Virus record (IMG/VR): IMGVR_UViG_3300012227_000062
Length of the DNA stretch: 14,729 nucleotides
Reading direction: 5' to 3' (one strand)
Origin: a virus
Shown here: positions 2-6,954 of the stretch, piece by piece
Position numbering within the stretch: the first letter of the stretch is position 1
Layout of the letters: every line of letters begins with the position of its first letter
Program-made: the position numbers and the translations under genes
The notes under the pieces: model-generated
The model's input: only the letters and a program-made list of their open reading frames with translations
What the model was told of the DNA's origin: nothing
Databases searched by the model: none

Positions 2-604
2 CAAGCGCTGCGCAACGGCTACCAGGGCGAATCGACTGCCGGGCGCGCGTCGTTCATCTCCGGCAAGAAACCGAACGGCGCCGCTGGCGAAGACTGGCAG
101 CGCTCGCAACCGACTGAGGAGGATGTCGCCTACAGCCAGCTCGTGTTCGGCTGGATCAAAGAAAGCACGGACCCGAGCGAATACATGTACAACCTCCGCG
201 TCGCTGCCGCGCAATTCGGCGTGACCGGGCGCACGGAGGGCCTCTTGGCTTCCGCGATTGGCGCCTACCAGCGCGACGTCGAGAAGAAGATCGCCGCGCA
301 AGCGAAGCCGAAGACCGAAAGCGCCCATGTGGGCGAGATCGGCGCCCGTCTCGTATTCCGCCTCACCGTCCTGCGCCGACTCACCGTCGAAACCGCGTAC
401 GGCGGCCTCACGATTCACGTGCTGGAGGATGCGAGCGGCAACGTGTTCGTTTGGAAAACTGGCAGCGCCTACCTCGACTCCGGCAAGACCTACGACGTTA
501 GAGGCACCGTCAAGAAGCACTCTGACTACAAGGGCCGCAAGCAAACCGAGCTCTCGCGTTGCACAGTAGTGCTCGCCGCGTCCGAGCAGGAGAAATCAGC
601 ATGA
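2..604 (+). CDS. Hypothetical protein, 5'-partial; the reading frame is open from the window edge. The C-terminal region looks OB-fold-like.
   Basis: Frame 2 is open from nt 2 with no stop, and the first ATG is at 143. Stop TGA at 602-604 overlaps the next gene's ATG at 601 (ATGA). Amino-acid composition is protein-like. The C-terminal stretch 'TIHVLEDASGNVFVWKTGSAYLDSGKTYDVRGTVKKHSDYKG' looks like a beta-rich OB-type domain. I recognise no family. Confidence 0.55.
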   Translation, partial: QALRNGYQGESTAGRASFISGKKPNGAAGEDWQRSQPTEEDVAYSQLVFGWIKESTDPSEYMYNLRVAAAQFGVTGRTEGLLASAIGAYQRDVEKKIAAQAKPKTESAHVGEIGARLVFRLTVLRRLTVETAYGGLTIHVLEDASGNVFVWKTGSAYLDSGKTYDVRGTVKKHSDYKGRKQTELSRCTVVLAASEQEKSA

Positions 605-1197
605 ACGGCGACTACAAAGAAGACGATTTCACCACTGGGCCGAAGCCCAAGCTTGCGGAGGTCATCACGCTCGCCGACCGGCGCTCCCCGCCGCAAGAAG
701 AACCTCTGTCAGGTCCGGTTCGAGCCTACCAGGCTGCACTCTGTACCGAGATGGATCGCCAGCGCGAGCAGAGCAAACACCACACGATCGGTGCGAAGTA
801 CGTGCAAGGTAGAGACGTTGCCGAGGTGGCACGTTTGCTGCGCGCGGACATCGCGGAAGCAATCAGGATGTCGGAGCTCCCGAAGGGGCTCAAGTGCTCG
901 GTCCGTATCGCGCGCTACGCGGGGGGGCAGAGTCTCAACCTGGAGGTGACGGCGTTACCGGCTGAGCTGGCGCTGGCCAACCCGGCGAGGGTGCTCTTCG
1001 ATAAGACGCACCCGCATCGCCCGCACCCCGCGGGGATGGGCCTCTACAGCGACGAAGCGACACAGCTTGTCGCCAAGCTCGAGAAGTTAGCCAACGCCTA
1101 CAACTACGACCGATCGGACTCGATGACCGACTACTGGGACGTCAACTTCTATCTGCACGTCGAATTCTCGTTCGCAGTGCGCCAGGCAACCAAATGA
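601..1197 (+). CDS. Hypothetical protein, 198 aa
   Basis: ATG at 601 with AGGAG 11 nt upstream and an ATGA overlap with the previous stop. The alternative start at 559 lacks an RBS. The stop overlaps the next gene's start at 1194 (ATGA). No recognisable motif. Confidence 0.6.
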   Translation: MNGDYKEDDFTTGPKPKLAEVITLADRRSPPQEEPLSGPVRAYQAALCTEMDRQREQSKHHTIGAKYVQGRDVAEVARLLRADIAEAIRMSELPKGLKCSVRIARYAGGQSLNLEVTALPAELALANPARVLFDKTHPHRPHPAGMGLYSDEATQLVAKLEKLANAYNYDRSDSMTDYWDVNFYLHVEFSFAVRQATK

Positions 1198-1631
1198 AGA
1201 TCCCGGAATATCGAATCAGCCTCGTTCGTGAGCGCGTGCTCAGCTACCGCAAGCTCGACAGCTCGCGCAGTACGGCGGCGGTCCTTCATGCGATGCTCGA
1301 CGACGCCGACCGCGAGAAGATCGTGACGCTCTACGTCAACGGTGTCGGGGAGCTCATCGGCGCGGAGATCGTGGCCATTGGCAGCATGCACCAATGCGGG
1401 GTGGTCGCGAAGGACGTGTTTCGCGGGGCCATCGTCGGCGGGGCAGCGGCCATCATCCTCGGGCACAATCACCTGTCGGGGGATCCGACGCCAAGCTCAG
1501 CGGACATCGATGTCACCAAGATGCTGAGCGCCGCGGGCGCCCTGCTTGGTTGCAAGGTGCTCGACCACGTGATTGTCAGCCCGAACGGGCGCGACAAGTC
1601 GATGTTTGATTTGGGGCTCATCGAAGCGTGA
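1194..1631 (+). CDS. RadC-like JAB/MPN domain protein (UPF0758 family)
   Basis: The motif 'AIILGHNHLSGDPTPSSADIDVTKMLSAAGALLGCKVLDHVIV' matches the RadC/JAB signature HNHPSG..PS..D...T..L......LLgi.vlDHiIv. It is translationally coupled (ATGA) to the upstream gene. Confidence 0.85.
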   Translation: MKIPEYRISLVRERVLSYRKLDSSRSTAAVLHAMLDDADREKIVTLYVNGVGELIGAEIVAIGSMHQCGVVAKDVFRGAIVGGAAAIILGHNHLSGDPTPSSADIDVTKMLSAAGALLGCKVLDHVIVSPNGRDKSMFDLGLIEA

Positions 1632-1649
1632 AAAAAACTCAGGGTGACT

Positions 1650-1694
1650 CCTTTGAACGAGGTCGGGGCCTGGCGCCCCGGCTTGGTTCAAGGG
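1650..1694 (+). terminator. A strong imperfect 20-bp stem with a 5-nt loop. It is probably a terminator, attenuator or RNA-processing hairpin between the RadC-like gene and the next gene.
   Basis: cctttgaacgaggtcggggc / ctggc / gccccggcttggttcaaggg. Of 20 positions, 16 are Watson-Crick, 3 are G-U wobbles and 1 is a mismatch. A modestly T-rich tract (ctttctctct) starts about 8 nt downstream, so this is not a canonical intrinsic terminator. Confidence 0.35.
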
Positions 1695-1742
1695 AGTGGA
1701 CCTTTCTCTCTGCTGCATTGTTGATTGGAAAGGGGTTCGGCA

Positions 1743-2135
1743 ATGAATCGATTCTATGAATGGCTCGTGCTCTACACGTCGTGCGATACCGAATGGCAAA
1801 TCGTCGCACTGCTCAAGCGCACCTACGCGGGTGAGTTCGGCCTGGTGGTGAAGCACTTCTTTTTCGAGGCGGACACGTTCGCCCACGGCGTCGACAAGTT
1901 CTTCGTCACGCAGCAGGAAACGATTGCCGATCTCGGTTACTCGGCGCGAACCTTTCAACGCGGACTCGACGGCGACGACAGCGAGGGTGAGGACATCATC
2001 ATTGACGACAGCGAGAGCGAGCTTGTCGCGGCCGGCGTGCCTGTTCGTGGCGCGGTCGCGCAGCGTCTCAACGGTTGGCTGCGTCTCGCGGTCGGGTTTC
2101 CGGACCGACGTGAGCATCTCGAGGTGAAACCGTGA
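1743..2135 (+). CDS. Hypothetical protein with a helix-turn-helix-like segment and an acidic C-terminal region
   Basis: ATG at 1743 with AAAGGGG 8 nt upstream; the ORF track's TTG at 1725 is less likely. 'QQETIADLGYSARTFQRGL' resembles an HTH recognition unit. An acidic stretch DGDDSEGEDIIIDDSESE follows. The stop overlaps the next start (GTGA). Confidence 0.55.
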   Translation: MNRFYEWLVLYTSCDTEWQIVALLKRTYAGEFGLVVKHFFFEADTFAHGVDKFFVTQQETIADLGYSARTFQRGLDGDDSEGEDIIIDDSESELVAAGVPVRGAVAQRLNGWLRLAVGFPDRREHLEVKP

Positions 2136-2398
2136 GGCGCCGCATCTACCGACTCGTCGTCGAGACCTACGATGTCGATTTCAACGAGTGGGAAGCTCAC
2201 GGCTCGGTTCTCTTGCCGTACGGCGCGTGTCCGCGCGAAGTGGAGCACGCCTTGGCGTCGCTCGGGTTTTACTGCCCGCGTGGCGCCGACCGCCTGTCCT
2301 GGGCGGGCAACGTCGGAGCCTTTGCGCTCGCCATCATCAGCGATGGCAATGACCGTACCTTCTTGCGGCTCGTGCGAGCCGAAAGCGAGGCCGCTTGA
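2132..2398 (+). CDS. Hypothetical small protein, 88 aa, GTG start
   Basis: GTG at 2132 overlaps the upstream stop (GTGA) with GAGGTG just upstream. The stop overlaps the next gene's TTG (TTGA). GC is high at third codon positions. Confidence 0.45.
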   Translation: MRRRIYRLVVETYDVDFNEWEAHGSVLLPYGACPREVEHALASLGFYCPRGADRLSWAGNVGAFALAIISDGNDRTFLRLVRAESEAA

Positions 2399-3219
2399 AC
2401 GACAGCGAAAGCGCAGAACTCGCGAGACGCTACACGATCCCCGAGCTCGTCGCCGCGTGGCGCGAAGCCGAGGCCGTCGTGCGGCTCTCGTTTCGGACGC
2501 TGGTGGAGGCCGAGCAGCGCATCAACGCCGTCTACACGCTGAATGGCAGCTATCCGATTCGGGTGACGGCAAGCCGCTACCATCCGAACGAGATTGACTT
2601 CAAGGACATCGATAGCGCTCTCGAACGCATGGCGCGCGACTGCTGGGGAACCATTGTCGCCAAGTGCGAGCTCCACCGGATGATGAGCATCCAGCGCGCC
2701 CATGAGCTCGACGAGCAACTGAAAAAAGGTGAATTGCCACCGATCACAGAGGAGAACGTGGCCAACTTCATCCAGGGCTGTCTCGATAACCTACCCAAGA
2801 TGCTCGAGGAAGCGGTCGGCGAAGTGTTCGATTGGCTACGGCCTTGCCACACCGATTACAAAACCAACAGCAAGCTCGAGATCGGTCCGAAGGTCGTCCT
2901 CACGTACATGGTGGAAGAGGGCTACGGCGGGGAAAGTTTTCGGCTGAACTACAACAAGAGCCAGCACGTGATGGCTATGGAGAATGTTTTTAGCGCGCTC
3001 GACGGCAAGGGGCAGATCGCGAAGGCGAACCGAAGCGCGCTCGAGACGGCCATTGGCGCGTCGGGGCCGTCGGGCCGCGGGGAGACGCCGCTCTTCAAGT
3101 TTCGGGCGTTCAAGAATCGGAATCTCCATTTGGAGTTTCGGCGTCTGGATCTGCTCAAGAGATTCAACATGATCGCCGGTGGGCGCAACCTCCGACCGGC
3201 AGCAAAGGAAGCGTCATGA
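2395..3219 (+). CDS. Hypothetical protein, 274 aa, TTG start. It may belong to a DUF family seen in ICE/prophage accessory regions; the DUF4942 guess comes from memory only and is unverified.
   Basis: Long ORF with protein-like composition. It is coupled at both ends (TTGA upstream, ATGA downstream at 3216), with GAGG 4 nt upstream of the TTG. Confidence 0.6.
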   Translation: MNDSESAELARRYTIPELVAAWREAEAVVRLSFRTLVEAEQRINAVYTLNGSYPIRVTASRYHPNEIDFKDIDSALERMARDCWGTIVAKCELHRMMSIQRAHELDEQLKKGELPPITEENVANFIQGCLDNLPKMLEEAVGEVFDWLRPCHTDYKTNSKLEIGPKVVLTYMVEEGYGGESFRLNYNKSQHVMAMENVFSALDGKGQIAKANRSALETAIGASGPSGRGETPLFKFRAFKNRNLHLEFRRLDLLKRFNMIAGGRNLRPAAKEAS

Positions 3220-3689
3220 AGTTCAAAACTTCTTTGATTCTGGAACGGGCGTACAACTCGCCTCGTGCCTTCCGCACGAAACGACGTTCCCTGGTAGCTC
3301 CCATCAAAACGTTTCGCAGTGTCGGCGGGCGAGAGTTCACCGTCGGACGTGGCGAGCACGAGGAACGCTGCAAGGGTGACCCGCTTTGGTCCGACACGTG
3401 GCCCCTTCTTCACGAAGGGCGACCTGCGGGAAAACTGTTCCGTAGTCTGAACTATGGGACCACTGCAGATGGTGCGCCGCGCTGGCAGGCGAGCACCCGC
3501 GAGCTCTTCTGGTCCAAGGCTTCGGACGCGCCGACAGGTATCGGTTTCGACGTGGCCGCGTTCGATACGCCGGAGCAAGCGCTGGCGGCGTGGGGACGCA
3601 GCGCCGACGAGATCCTCGACTGGGCCGCTGGCAAGCCGGTGCGGAGCATCTACTCGAAAACCGGCGTCTTCCAGAAGGTGGCCCGATGA
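3216..3689 (+). CDS. Hypothetical protein, 157 aa
   Basis: ATG at 3216 with AAGGAAG upstream. ATGA overlaps at both ends. Confidence 0.55.
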   Translation: MKFKTSLILERAYNSPRAFRTKRRSLVAPIKTFRSVGGREFTVGRGEHEERCKGDPLWSDTWPLLHEGRPAGKLFRSLNYGTTADGAPRWQASTRELFWSKASDAPTGIGFDVAAFDTPEQALAAWGRSADEILDWAAGKPVRSIYSKTGVFQKVAR

Positions 3690-3901
3690 CCAGAAGAAGA
3701 ACGGCCGCGGAAGAAGCGGCAACGGCCAAGGATTGCGCAGACACGCGTGCCATGTGGGATCGCATGAATGCGCGCGATAGTAAACGCTTGGAGGAAGCCA
3801 AGGCGTACTTGGTCGCCCATGCCGGTAGCTACGGACAGATCATCCTCGAGCATGTGAAGGCTCTCGAGTTGCAGCTCGCGAAGGCAAAGAAGAAGAAATG
3901 A
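3686..3901 (+). CDS. Hypothetical small protein, 71 aa, with a lysine-rich C-terminus
   Basis: ATG at 3686 with AAGGTGG upstream and ATGA coupling at both ends. The ORF track's longer 3590 start lies inside the previous gene and is unlikely. Confidence 0.5.
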   Translation: MTRRRTAAEEAATAKDCADTRAMWDRMNARDSKRLEEAKAYLVAHAGSYGQIILEHVKALELQLAKAKKKK

Positions 3902-4503
3902 AAACGACCACCGTCGGAACCTGCATCGTCTGCAACCGCGAGATCGCTGTTCGACAATTGGGGCCGCAGACCTCGCATCCTGATGCAAAAGGAAGCACCG
4001 TTCTCGTGCATCACGGCTACCAGCGCCCCGGCGACGGGGCCATCCGCGGCGACTGTTTCGCGGTCGACCTTCCGCCGCATGAGCTGTCGGCCAATGCGGC
4101 GCAGGACTACCAGCGGCATTGCGAAACCACGCTCGTTGCGCTCCGTAAGGCGCTCGTCCAACACGAGCGTAACGGAGTCGACGTCTACAACCGAATGGAG
4201 CGCGTGCCGGTGCCGACAACGGCCGAGCGACCGACTTCGGTTTTCTATGGCAGCGTTGGCCGCGATCCGGGCTGGGAGGAAACCTTCGTGTCCTACCGGC
4301 GGGATGAGTCGGACGAGCGGCGCAGGCGCGTGTTCGCGGACCTGCAGGCTGATGCCATCGTGCGGACCAAGCACGGCATCGACTGGAACGAGAGGGAGAT
4401 CGCCCGGATGATCGTGGCGATCGACACGTGGGCGCTGAAGCCGCTCGGTAAGCGCGTCGAGACGCCGCCAACGACGCGGCGGCGAAGGAGGAGATTCGGA
4501 TGA
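3898..4503 (+). CDS. Hypothetical protein with an N-terminal CxxC/His cluster, putatively Zn-binding
   Basis: 'CIVCNREI...HHGYQRPGDGAIRGDC' is a candidate zinc-ribbon. ATGA coupling at both ends. Confidence 0.6.
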   Translation: MKTTTVGTCIVCNREIAVRQLGPQTSHPDAKGSTVLVHHGYQRPGDGAIRGDCFAVDLPPHELSANAAQDYQRHCETTLVALRKALVQHERNGVDVYNRMERVPVPTTAERPTSVFYGSVGRDPGWEETFVSYRRDESDERRRRVFADLQADAIVRTKHGIDWNEREIARMIVAIDTWALKPLGKRVETPPTTRRRRRRFG

Positions 4504-4841
4504 CCATCGAATTTAAAATGGACAGCGTGCATCTCGGACCGAAGGTTCTCATGTCGAGCCGGGCAGCGATCGAGGTGCTCGAGGTGCTCGGCTACACGTG
4601 GCGCGGGCTCGGCACGACGGGCGACAAGCTCGAGTCGCTCGACGTCGTTCGTCGCTGCGACCGGTACCTGATCAACAGGCAGACGGTGCAGAGTGCGCTC
4701 GCCAAGTTCGAGCTCCGTCAGGGGGGCAGCGCTAGAGGCGCCACGTCGCACGTCGACGCGGTGCTCATCGACATGGCGGAGCTTCGCTGCTTCGCACAGA
4801 AGGCGCTTCACGCGGGGCGCGCGATCCGGTGGTGCCCATGA
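4500..4841 (+). CDS. Hypothetical protein, 113 aa
   Basis: ATG at 4500 with a strong AAGGAGGAG RBS. ATGA coupling at both ends. Confidence 0.6.
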   Translation: MTIEFKMDSVHLGPKVLMSSRAAIEVLEVLGYTWRGLGTTGDKLESLDVVRRCDRYLINRQTVQSALAKFELRQGGSARGATSHVDAVLIDMAELRCFAQKALHAGRAIRWCP

Positions 4842-5137
4842 AACGTATGCATTTCCCAAGTATCAAAGACGTGGCGAGCGTGCTCGCCGTCATCAACCGG
4901 GGCACCGAGAGTGTCGAGAGCGACCCCATCGACGTGCGGTTGCAAGTGTACGACAACGGCACGTGGGCCGTTCGCACGGGCGATCCGCAGTACGACCTCG
5001 ATCACAGTGGCTATTGGGGCGCGTCGAGTCTGCCTGGCGTTTACGAGGGCAAGGTGCGGCGGTGCAATACGCGCGACGTCGCACGCGATCTACTCGAGCA
5101 GTGCAGAGAGATGCATGCCACGTCGAAGCTTGCGTAA
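4838..5137 (+). CDS. Hypothetical protein, 99 aa
   Basis: ATG at 4838 overlaps the previous stop (ATGA). The ORF track's GTG at 4829 is the less likely start. Confidence 0.5.
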   Translation: MKRMHFPSIKDVASVLAVINRGTESVESDPIDVRLQVYDNGTWAVRTGDPQYDLDHSGYWGASSLPGVYEGKVRRCNTRDVARDLLEQCREMHATSKLA

Positions 5138-5140
5138 CGT

Positions 5141-5156
5141 GTACGATCGTACTAGT
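5141..5156. promoter_or_regulatory. Palindromic motif GTACGATCGTAC-TAGT. This is copy 1 of a motif shared with 11001-11016.
   Basis: A perfect 12-bp palindrome (gtacgatcgtac) sits in the 33-bp gap before gene 12, immediately upstream of the AGAAGGAG RBS. A 16-bp match with 2 mismatches lies at 11001-11016. Confidence 0.45.
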
Positions 5157-5170
5157 AGAAGGAGTGACAC

Positions 5171-5896
5171 ATGGTTGACGTTGTGATTTCTGAGGAAGAA
5201 GCGCGTGGCTGCGGACACCGCAAGCCCGCCAAGGATGGCGTAGGCGTCTACCTCGTCGGACCGAGCGAAGGGGCGCCGTGCGGACGGCTGCCGTACGAGC
5301 TCCACGCGTGCCCGACGTGCAGCGGCGGCATCAAGCCGGCGCGGGGGTGGAGCTGGATAGAGCCACGAAACCTATTTGTGGATGCGTCCCGCTTGACGAT
5401 TGAGCCCGTAAACCTGTTTCTGGATGCAGGGGTGTGCTCGGTATCAGTTCCTGCGTTGCGAGCCGCCTGCCAGTCTTGTCCGCTCGGGCTCGGCATGCCG
5501 GAGGGGCGCCACGGGCTCATCTGGGTCGGCGAAGGGCACTACGCGGCGCCCGGCGACTTCATGACAGAGGCGCATCGCATGGGCGTCAGCCGCAAGATCA
5601 AGGCGGTGCCGAAGGGTTTCGAGCTCGGCAAGACGGTCGTTTACCTCGCGCACCGGCACACGCCGCTCAAGGAGTTCGACGTGGAGACGGGCTTGGCGAA
5701 GCTCGGACCTGCCATCTTCTCGGTGTTCAAGCCGACAGGGATCGACCTCGTCATCGCTGACGAGAACAAGGTCCCGGAGAAAGCCGAAAAGCTCGCCGAG
5801 AAGTACGGGGCGCGCATCGTGAAGGTGATTTCGAAGCTGGCCGAGCAGCCTCCCGAGGCGGAGGCGGTACAGCGTTCGCTGCCGATGGTGCCATGA
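5171..5896 (+). CDS. Hypothetical protein, 241 aa, with an N-terminal 4-Cys zinc-ribbon-like cluster and an internal 14-aa tandem repeat
   Basis: Strong RBS agaaggagtgacacATG. 'CGHRK..CGRLPYELHACPTCSGG' suggests a Zn ribbon. The repeats IEPRNLFVDASRLT / IEPVNLFLDAGVCS are encoded by 26-bp direct repeats at 5360-5385 and 5402-5427. The stop overlaps the next start (ATGA). Confidence 0.65.
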   Translation: MVDVVISEEEARGCGHRKPAKDGVGVYLVGPSEGAPCGRLPYELHACPTCSGGIKPARGWSWIEPRNLFVDASRLTIEPVNLFLDAGVCSVSVPALRAACQSCPLGLGMPEGRHGLIWVGEGHYAAPGDFMTEAHRMGVSRKIKAVPKGFELGKTVVYLAHRHTPLKEFDVETGLAKLGPAIFSVFKPTGIDLVIADENKVPEKAEKLAEKYGARIVKVISKLAEQPPEAEAVQRSLPMVP

Positions 5897-6474
5897 AATT
5901 GCGTATCCAAAACTACACGGCGTATCGAACGGTCGATCTGCGCCGGTTCTTTACGGCGGGCCTGCGGGCGATGGTTGTCACGCGGTCAAAGACGATCGAG
6001 GTGCGCTACCGGTCGGGCCGGCTGACGTGTTCACGGGCAACGCTCGGCGCGTTCGAAGAGGTCAGCGCCGTCGATGCCGATGGGCTGCCGTCGAAGAAAT
6101 GGCGGCTCGATGAGGGGCGCTGGATTCGTATGCTCATTGGTAAGCCGAGCCCGTCAGGTCCCGACCTGCGCCGGTTCGCGCGCGTGTTCGAGCACGAGGT
6201 GCTTCACAATAAGGGCGTCGGGCATCGTGAGATGACACCGGCACAGTGGCGCTGCGATGAGCCACTGCCGAAGTGGGCCGATGGCCTGGTAATCCGATTG
6301 AAGGAGGTCAAGGCGAAGCCGACCGCGGCGGACAGAGTGGCCGGCCGCGCAGAGCACGCGCGGGAGATGCTTGCGGCGTACGAGCGCAAACAGAAGCGCG
6401 TTGCGACGCTCCTCAAAAAGTGGCGGGCGAAGGTGCGCTACTATGAGCGACGCGCAGCAGCGAAGGCTCTTTGA
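5893..6474 (+). CDS. Hypothetical protein with an HEVLHNKGVGH (HExxHxxGxxH) zincin-like motif and a basic coiled-coil C-terminus
   Basis: ATG at 5893 (ATGA coupled). The motif matches HExxHxxGxxH exactly, but there is no other family evidence. Confidence 0.55.
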   Translation: MKLRIQNYTAYRTVDLRRFFTAGLRAMVVTRSKTIEVRYRSGRLTCSRATLGAFEEVSAVDADGLPSKKWRLDEGRWIRMLIGKPSPSGPDLRRFARVFEHEVLHNKGVGHREMTPAQWRCDEPLPKWADGLVIRLKEVKAKPTAADRVAGRAEHAREMLAAYERKQKRVATLLKKWRAKVRYYERRAAAKAL

Positions 6475-6600
6475 AATCTAGTGGTACAAGTGGGTACATT
6501 TTCAAGCGATTAGCTACCGTTTGAAAGCGTGCACATGAGGTCAAAGAACGGGAAAGCCTAGCCTCACCACTAGATTTGAAAGAGCTGCAAAAGGGACCTC
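6469..6600. promoter_or_regulatory. AT-rich intergenic island that probably holds a promoter or operator for genes 14-15
   Basis: A 15-bp inverted repeat (6471-6485 ttgaaatctagtggt / 6566-6580 accactagatttgaa) has 1 mismatch and flanks about 80 bp. TTTGAAA occurs three times, at 6470-6476, 6520-6526 and 6575-6581. A candidate sigma70-like pair is TTGAAA (6471-6476) and TACATT (6495-6500) with an 18-bp spacer. GC is about 45% against about 65% background. Confidence 0.4.
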
Positions 6601-6954
6601 ATGGAAACGAAGCGGTATGGAACGGTCGACGTGGATTGGGAGTGGGAGCAGTTCGAACCCGTGGCTGAAGAGCAAGCCGAGGATATCTACGAAGAGCAAG
6701 CCGACATCGTGATTTTCGATCCACGTCGCTGTCCGCGCCATCCCAACGTCCAGACGTCGAGCGATGATGGCATGTTCGATGCGCCCTGCGGCGAGTGCGA
6801 GTATGAGTCCGACAGCTGGGCTGAACGCTACGAGTGGGAGCGACCGGACCGGCCAATCGCCCGGTGCGGGCTCGGCTACCGGTACTGGGGTTATGATCCC
6901 AAGGGTGAGCTAGTGAGCTGCTTGGCCACGCTGAACGACGAACTGGTGTTCTGA
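6601..6954 (+). CDS. Very acidic small protein with a Cys cluster, 117 aa
   Basis: RBS aaaagggacctcATG. About 29 D/E residues against about 12 K/R. Cys-containing motifs CPRHP, CGEC and ARCG. Confidence 0.6.
   Translation: METKRYGTVDVDWEWEQFEPVAEEQAEDIYEEQADIVIFDPRRCPRHPNVQTSSDDGMFDAPCGECEYESDSWAERYEWERPDRPIARCGLGYRYWGYDPKGELVSCLATLNDELVF

Follow-up and report, generated by a model that had tools for sequence, protein, structure and literature searches.

What kind of element occupies the AT-rich spacer between genes 13 and 14 of the viral contig IMGVR_UViG_3300012227_000062 from the IMG/VR database? This contig, referred to as the window, was analysed over its whole length of 14,729 nucleotides (nt). 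It is a metagenomic element of phage-like character, in which small genes form long arrays on one strand. Genes 13 and 14 are separated by a gap of 126 nt, the core of which is a 120-nt unit (6466-6585) delimited by a 20-nt inverted repeat. This spacer feature is genuine, non-random and clearly delimited, with no detectable relatives. Tentatively, we favour the reading of the island as a composite control spacer between genes of the phage-like element, in which a rightward promoter is combined with a stem that forms in read-through RNA alone.

The two arms of the repeat are complementary at 19 of 20 positions and are separated by 80 nt, with G6473 versus G6578 as the sole mismatch. The original prediction described a 15-bp inverted repeat at this site; it is real and longer than claimed, as the 15-nt arms are the inner part of the 20-nt arms. 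When 6440-6620 was shuffled 300 times with dinucleotides preserved, no 20-nt inverted repeat exceeded 16/20, so the observed repeat is not a product of chance. With up to three mismatches allowed, 0.00 recurrences of an arm are expected in the window, and the arm sequence is found nowhere else in it, including the other intergenic gaps. The base composition also sets the spacer apart. The GC fraction is 0.455 over 6469-6600 and 0.450 over 6466-6585, compared with 0.625 for the window, so that the earlier description as an AT-rich island is confirmed. The three TTTGAAA copies reported at 6470, 6520 and 6575 are likewise present, and the whole window contains four copies where 0.85 are expected. 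These copies are, however, not independent, since two belong to the repeat arms and the third forms the 3' side of an inner hairpin, P2, in which it pairs with TTTTCAAG (6499-6506) on the 5' side. The window contains 11 copies of the tetranucleotide CTAG, about two-fold fewer than the 21.8 that the dinucleotides predict, and three of the 11 occurrences fall in the 120-nt element (6478, 6558 and 6570).

In silico folding of the + strand RNA from 6455 to 6610 yields -53.7 kcal/mol, compared with -36.6 ± 3.6 kcal/mol for shuffled sequences (z = -4.78). The predicted fold is a three-way junction consisting of P1, which is formed by the two arms, and the inner hairpins P2 and P3, and it is retained in a 261-nt context (z = -4.41). 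According to these models, the long-range stem anticipated from the inverted repeat appears thermodynamically real on the + strand RNA (z -4.4 to -4.8). The - strand RNA folds more weakly (z = -2.31), and for the interior alone the values are z = -1.95 (+ strand) and z = -0.24 (- strand). The stem had been expected to end about 10 nt before the ribosome-binding site of gene 14; it actually ends at 6585, approximately 5 nt ahead of AAGGGA and 15 nt ahead of the ATG at 6601. An intrinsic terminator was considered for this stem and dropped, as a terminator scan reports no such site at 6466-6600 and a stem without a U tract is not a classical intrinsic terminator.

Promoter-like motifs coincide with the left part of the element. 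A sigma-70 scan of the 14.7 kb window returned two hits, and the only one on the + strand is TTGAAA-18-TACATT, the same pair that the original prediction had singled out. The looser pattern TTGAAA-N16-19-TANNNT matches the window twice, both times in the island and once per strand, where 0.04 matches are expected. The island contains mirror-image promoter-like motifs on both strands at 6471-6505, with the - strand motif TTGAAA-19-TAGATT running from 6505 to 6475.

Further hints come from two related, phage-like contigs that contain a homologue of gene 14. In L040 (1-5309), the motif GTGYARGAT-N10-TGGTAYAAC recurs in about 12 successive spacers, approximately 25-35 nt before the start codons; these spacers are about 60 nt long, and nearly every spacer bears the motif. 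In L041 (1-5285), five spacers contain TTGAAG-N16-TGTATC, including the spacer immediately ahead of the gene 14 homologue. These spacer motifs are likely phage promoters. A non-coding gap also lies ahead of each gene 14 homologue in L021 and L022. TTGAAR-N17-GTAYMT has a single true match in the window, namely the island. The island also contains a TGGTAY, a motif with six occurrences on the + strand of the window and none on the - strand. Three of these are found in the 7% of the window that is intergenic, and each is located upstream of a + strand gene: the copy at 6482 precedes gene 14, that at 10999 a gene whose product resembles the major vault protein (MVP), and that at 14426 the last gene. 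The enrichment in intergenic DNA corresponds to a Poisson P of approximately 0.007, computed post hoc. TGGTAY may be an extended -10 element of this phage lineage.

In the proposed mechanism, the rightward promoter would act on double-stranded DNA through TTGAAA-18-TACATT and/or TGGTACAAG, and initiation near 6497-6508 would serve genes 14 and 15. RNA reading through from the 13 upstream genes would hold both arms, allowing P1 to pair and to close the 120-nt three-way junction between the region of the gene 13 stop codon and a point 15 nt before the gene 14 ATG. Transcripts initiated at the internal promoter would lack the left arm, and in these the stem could not form. The stem would attenuate or insulate the long transcript, or mark it for processing. 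A 20-bp stem stacked on an 18-bp hairpin has the size of an RNase III substrate and might be cleaved; it could also serve as a barrier or stabiliser. The putative 5' leader also contains the only open reading frame (ORF) of the element, a mini-ORF of eight codons (MRSKNGKA*, 6535-6561) that overlaps P2 and P3.

Several observations weigh against a promoter combined with a stem. The candidate TTGAAA-18-TACATT fits only 9 of 12 positions, and 4.7% of local-composition shuffles do as well. The sigma-70 scan missed the other promoters that the window must possess, so the consensus may not be that of the host. The upstream element of L040, GTGYARGAT, has no match at the right spacing in the island, and the comparisons with the L040 and L041 motifs were devised once the data were known. 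At about 100 nt, the predicted 5' leader is far longer than those of the relatives. The sequence following the stem is TGCAAAAGGG, which lacks a U tract. Finally, no homologue of the element was obtained from the related loci, BLAST or the IMG/VR searches.

The closest known counterparts of such an arrangement are the promoter early stem-loop (PeSL) elements of T4-type phages. These spacers of about 100 bp begin at an upstream stop codon and end in a Shine-Dalgarno sequence and ATG, with an AT-rich promoter of the sigma-70-like type and a stem-loop in between (PMC2839356, PMC4122927). The stem-loop may overlap the -35 or the -10 element and attenuates upstream transcription, and the sites mark the boundaries of shuffled modules (PMC2839356, PMC4122927). 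Similarly, the island spans the interval from the stop codon TGA at 6472 to the ATG at 6601 with a sigma-70-like -35/-10 pair in between, its stem overlaps the promoter in that the left arm covers the -35 element, and it is situated at a shuffled-module boundary of a phage-like genome. PeSLs, however, are short hairpins of G-runs and C-runs that are conserved in sequence and number about 50 per genome. The island sequence, by contrast, is present in a single copy in 14.7 kb and is absent from the other gaps, with only the short TGGTAY recurring, which is a further point against the favoured reading. In addition, its stem is a long-range one of 20 bp that encloses the -10 element and 80 nt and has no U tract, and it belongs to an unrelated, uncultured host and phage lineage.

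In the early mRNA of phage T7, each intercistronic RNase III site is one hairpin of about 60 nt that has an internal loop and is proven to be cleaved. Like these sites, the island would place a long stem of double-stranded RNA between the cistrons of a polycistronic phage transcript, but its structure is a three-way junction and is predicted only. Most simply, the island is a promoter-bearing palindromic spacer at a module junction and, as such, fairly ordinary.

Conservation offers a separate view of the element. Nine loci homologous to gene 13 were compared, eight from metagenomes and one viral, and the element is absent from all of them. The gene order around gene 13 differs in every relative, and the junction of gene 13 with gene 14 occurs only in this contig and in the identical Logan contig L020. 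The absence of the repeat from every recovered homologous locus would seem to speak against a function, as the original prediction allowed; as the junction itself is also lacking there, this absence marks the element as an orphan and does not show that it is inert. Further searches reached beyond these loci. No hits came from a genome scan with a gene 13 profile, from BLAST of the element against plasmids, or from three scans of IMG/VR with patterns based on the arms or on the left end. BLAST against phages gave only 23-nt chance matches in Sulfolobus viruses, and the one open frame, translated and compared with 1.84 billion proteins, retrieved repeat-protein noise only. An apparent homology of the right boundary with L024, from 6586 onward, was dropped because the downstream proteins are unrelated (E = 0.2). 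The closest relative of gene 13, L002, contains a 22-nt inverted repeat at 1762-1835 (95% complementary, 30 nt between the arms), whose sequence is unrelated to the element.

An unlikely explanation, though the main rival of the favoured one, is that a MITE-like (miniature inverted-repeat transposable element) non-autonomous insertion of 120 bp entered gene 13 at its 3' end and has come to provide the stop codon of this gene. MITEs are shorter than 500 bp, non-coding and dispersed in several copies, with terminal inverted repeats of about 4-30 bp and flanking direct repeats, and their duplications decay with age (PMC10969869). The island corresponds to this description in its 120 bp, its terminal repeats matching at 19/20, its non-coding nature and its GC content of 45% within an element of 62.5% GC. 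The concentration of three out of 11 CTAGs within 120 bases of a CTAG-depleted window suggests a foreign composition. Moreover, gene 13 resembles its relatives only as far as the AAG codon 6463-6465, which directly adjoins the left arm, and none of the related loci contains the element.

Dispersed copies, however, were not found: apart from hits to the arm core, no second copy was detected in the window, by BLAST against plasmids and phages, with the IMG/VR patterns, in the GTDB species representatives or by the translated search. The 120-bp unit is not flanked by a duplication, with AAG on the left and TGC on the right. The gene order is not conserved among the relatives, and the uniqueness of the gene 13/gene 14 junction means that there is no true empty site for comparison. 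By description, the island resembles the Correia, ERIC (enterobacterial repetitive intergenic consensus) and RUP (repeat unit of pneumococcus) MITEs, as these form a class of 100-160 bp with terminal repeats of 20-26 bp and are AT-rich and intergenic with a long hairpin. Correia-type elements are co-transcribed, may have promoter hexamers at an end and form a hairpin of the RNase III substrate type. In contrast to the tens to hundreds of Correia copies with TA duplications and a defined consensus, the island is single and its 120-bp unit has no flanking duplication. The Correia elements of Neisseria bear promoters and RNase III sites (PMC2649163). An insertion would concern the origin of the island and is therefore compatible with a promoter or stem function, such effects being a by-product as in the Correia elements.

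A variant of this explanation assigns the insertion to an 88-nt CTAG...CTAG element at the centre of a pre-existing 28-bp palindrome. It arose from a scan with the arm core, in which one genome per species was searched with the pattern ATCTAGTGGT-N65-95-ACCACTAGAT. Nine hits were obtained, where about 17 were estimated by chance. Five of the nine are alphaproteobacterial and form a real repeat family of approximately 100-110 nt, bounded exactly by CTAG...CTAG and with the ends CTAGTGGT...ACCACTAG. Its hosts are Defluviicoccus, Acetobacterales, BAL199 and uncultured genomes. L016 contains two copies that lie 2.8 kb apart in unrelated flanks and are identical at 105 of 110 positions, and the copies in L014 and L017 are 76% identical. 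In L014 (4572-4744), a perfect outer palindrome of 29 bp surrounds the CTAG element, which is located at its centre and includes an internal third CTAGTGGT hairpin; this arrangement may be a nested insertion or reflect preferential insertion into palindromes. CTAG is the target of IS630 and IS5 group elements. The alphaproteobacterial family looks like an undescribed MITE with CTAG as its target. We know of no published name for this family. A search of its loci against Rfam gave no match, and a literature search for the terminal 8-mers retrieved only miR-203 primers.

The window element shares with this family the terminal 8-mers CTAGTGGT...ACCACTAG and a similar size class, and a 14-nt sequence, CTAGTGGTACAAGT, is common to the window and L012. 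As in L014, the inner 88-nt unit would sit at the centre of a longer palindrome. Nevertheless, the right end in the window does not have the terminal consensus of about 16 nt of the family, and the interior is not significantly similar to any member. As the family was retrieved with the 10-mer of the window itself, the common ends are partly due to ascertainment, and the nine hits remain below chance expectation. The inner unit (6482-6569) does have CTAG on both sides, yet its terminal repeat is then reduced to TGGT/ACCA. The uninterrupted palindrome occurs among viral contigs only in AT-rich genomes (phages), as chance predicts. Were the kinship real, and we regard it as a lead, the mobile unit would be 6482-6569 with duplicated CTAG (or TA) flanks, and the outer 12-bp arms would be a split palindrome. 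It is quite improbable that the inner 88 nt represent a class of small mobile elements, so far undescribed, that ends in TGGT...ACCA, targets CTAG at palindrome centres and is common to this phage-like element and Alphaproteobacteria (L012, L014-L017), with the outer arms as a split 28-bp hairpin.

Two other mobile-element candidates were rejected. For an integron attC site, the RYYYAAC/GTTRRRY cores are absent by eye, and for an ISL3-type end (GGCTCTTT), there is no 8-bp duplication.

The consequences of the two foremost explanations differ. A promoter with a read-through stem would split a phage gene array that is partly anti-defence-like into two expression units, provide a handle on the promoter form in an uncultured phage lineage (TTGAAR-N17-GTAY, TGGTAY), and suggest that promoter/stem-loop linkers at module boundaries also exist outside T4-type phages. 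A MITE would be a further case of a small mobile element rewiring expression, here inside a phage. Neither outcome alters current understanding.

The original prediction named an internal promoter with operator half-sites, an RNase III processing stem and a small structured RNA, preferred none of them, and is supported in part. Its first option combined a promoter with operators, and the two parts fared differently. The promoter part has gained indirect support from motifs that are either unique in the window or recurrent (sigma-70 scan, L040 and L041, TGGTAY). As for operators, a regulator could bind both arms, whose centres are 100 bp apart, and perhaps four TTTSAAA dyads, and act by promoter occlusion or DNA looping. 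The left arm covers the -35 element and extends into the -10-like TGGT, and the promoter-like motifs are mirrored on the two strands. The TTTGAAA/TTTTCAA dyads at about 6473, 6503, 6523 and 6578 are spaced by approximately 30, 20 and 55 bp, close to whole helical turns, but this phasing was spotted after the fact. Each 20-nt arm contains an internal dyad of only 7 bp, its sequence is not repeated in the window, there is no conservation to define a site, and no repressor-like gene could be identified in the window. An operator pair is very unlikely.

An RNA with a function of its own has an equally low probability. It could be a cis switch, in which a ribosome terminating at the gene 13 stop codon melts P1 and thereby changes how accessible the start of gene 14 is; other forms would be a small RNA released by processing, or a decoy in an anti-defence neighbourhood. 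The strong + strand fold and the weaker - strand fold would suit such an RNA, as would the position of the gene 13 stop codon within P1 and the neighbouring RadC, DUF4942 and Tad2-like genes. P2 contains three G-U pairs on the + strand along with one A-C mismatch, but this strand asymmetry (three G-U pairs versus one A-C), which favours the + strand, is not significant. In RNA that lacks the left arm, and only there, the minimum-energy fold includes the alternative pairing with the start-codon region listed in Table 1. This fold is no better than that of shuffled sequences (z = -0.69) and was for that reason not built upon. No Rfam family was matched in a whole-window scan or in a permissive search of the small region, the best score over the element being 16.6 bits for a miRNA hairpin model with a threshold of 70, and no tRNA or tmRNA was found in the window. 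The free-standing small structured RNA that had been suggested earlier thus finds no Rfam match, no terminator to define it and no homologues from which covariation could be derived.

A promoter on single-stranded DNA similar to Frpo, in which the - strand, if it enters a cell single-stranded, forms a hairpin that mimics duplex DNA with TTGAAA-19-TAGATT as the non-template sequence and transcription starts at about 6583-6588 at the base of P1, just before the ribosome-binding site of gene 14, is scarcely credible: the geometry fits on paper, Frpo candidates have been defined by criteria of this sort (PMC11541004), P1 is kept in DNA-parameter folds of both strands and same-strand arrays of the RadC/DUF4942 type resemble establishment regions, but the template-strand fold (the - strand) is modest (z = -2.18), the mimic duplex is interrupted by a 19-nt spacer, the junction and a side hairpin, the window contains no conjugation genes (no relaxase, type IV secretion or oriT signal), and the relatives resemble large phages rather than conjugative elements.

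The coordinates of the features are collected in Table 1.

Table 1. Features of the element, its surroundings and the alphaproteobacterial repeat family
Feature	Position	Strand	Basis or remark
Inverted-repeat left arm (5' side of stem P1)	6466-6485	+	GCTCTTTGAAATCTAGTGGT; holds the gene 13 stop codon and the -35-like TTGAAA
Inverted-repeat right arm (3' side of stem P1)	6566-6585	+	ACCACTAGATTTGAAAGAGC; ends 15 nt before the gene 14 ATG
Gene 13 stop codon TGA	6472-6474	+	within the left arm
Sigma-70-like candidate TTGAAA-18-TACATT	6471-6500	+	-35 at 6471-6476, -10 at 6495-6500; predicted start near 6507
Extended -10-like motif TGGTACAAG	6482-6490	+	same form as TGGTAYAAC in L040 and TGGTAY at 10999 and 14426
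GGGTACATT, near repeat of TGGTACAAG	6492-6500	+	sequence
Inner hairpin P2 (predicted)	6490-6536	+	pairing of about 6491-6508 with 6518-6535; 3' side bears the middle TTTGAAA
Inner hairpin P3 (GAGGU...CCUC), weak	6537-6565	+	fold
Alternative pairing of CATGAGGTC with GACCTCATG	6534-6542 with 6595-6603	+	predicted fold; includes the gene 14 start codon
Shine-Dalgarno-like AAGGGA and gene 14 ATG	6590-6603	+	sequence
Gene 13, 193 amino acids, HExxHxxGxxH (metzincin-like)	5893-6474	+	conservation among relatives
Gene 14, 117 amino acids, cysteine-rich; first gene downstream of the element	6601-6954	+	sequence
RadC	1194-1631	+	window annotation
DUF4942	2395-3219	+	window annotation
850-amino-acid protein, MVP shoulder and repeat domains	11051-13603	+	domain search
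CTAG-family copies	L016 3951-4060 and 6802-6911; L014 4603-4713; L017 993-1103; L012 288-387; L015 3682-3781		

The spacer had been described as the only substantial break in a coupled operon. It is indeed the largest gap within the tightly overlapping block 1776-7575, but the gaps 1632-1775 and 7576-7792 also lie on the + strand. The first of these directly follows RadC and contains a 22-bp hairpin at 1647-1697 with an RNA fold of z = -4.98. This hairpin (ACTCCTTTGAAC...GTTCAAGGGAGT) has a GC-rich apex and is followed by a U-rich tail, CTTTCTCTCTG. Based on this predicted structure, it is probably an intrinsic terminator, in which case the + strand operon would already be broken at this point. 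The second gap, of 217 nt, shows no special fold. A common CTC(C)TTTGAA in the 1647 hairpin and the element, as well as GCTCTTTGAA at 8846, were set aside, as chance can account for either.

The family of gene 13 comprises about 30 metagenomic proteins, in which the HExxHxxGxxH motif of a metzincin-like zinc site is invariant and the C-terminal KWRAKVRYYERRAAAK is conserved. Gene 13 itself has no Pfam hit, and just one homologue has a precomputed Pfam domain (PF13582). The MVP-like protein is 71-78% identical in L003, L004 and L006, where its gene is located just downstream of the gene 13 homologue. When gene 13 and the MVP-like gene were compared by tblastn with phages and plasmids, neither found a match; for the helicase, the only hits were distant phage helicases of many hosts, with about 30-35% identity. 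The + strand genes mostly overlap and also include an ice-binding-like protein, while the phage-type helicase and a Tad2-like gene are encoded on the - strand. The relatives look like large phages, with a 182-kb IMG/VR contig, contigs of 177 kb and 45 kb composed of small same-strand genes, a Pam3_Gp34 neighbour and several PHROG hits.

Gene 14 contains a perfect 14-nt direct repeat, GAAGAGCAAGCCGA (6667-6680 and 6691-6704), whose copies are 24 nt apart and encode a duplicated EEQA(E/D). An anti-defence-like cluster at 559-3219 and 10339-10989 comprises a phrog_1926 domain (phage protein 'released upon host infection'), RadC, DUF4942 and the Tad2-like gene on the - strand.

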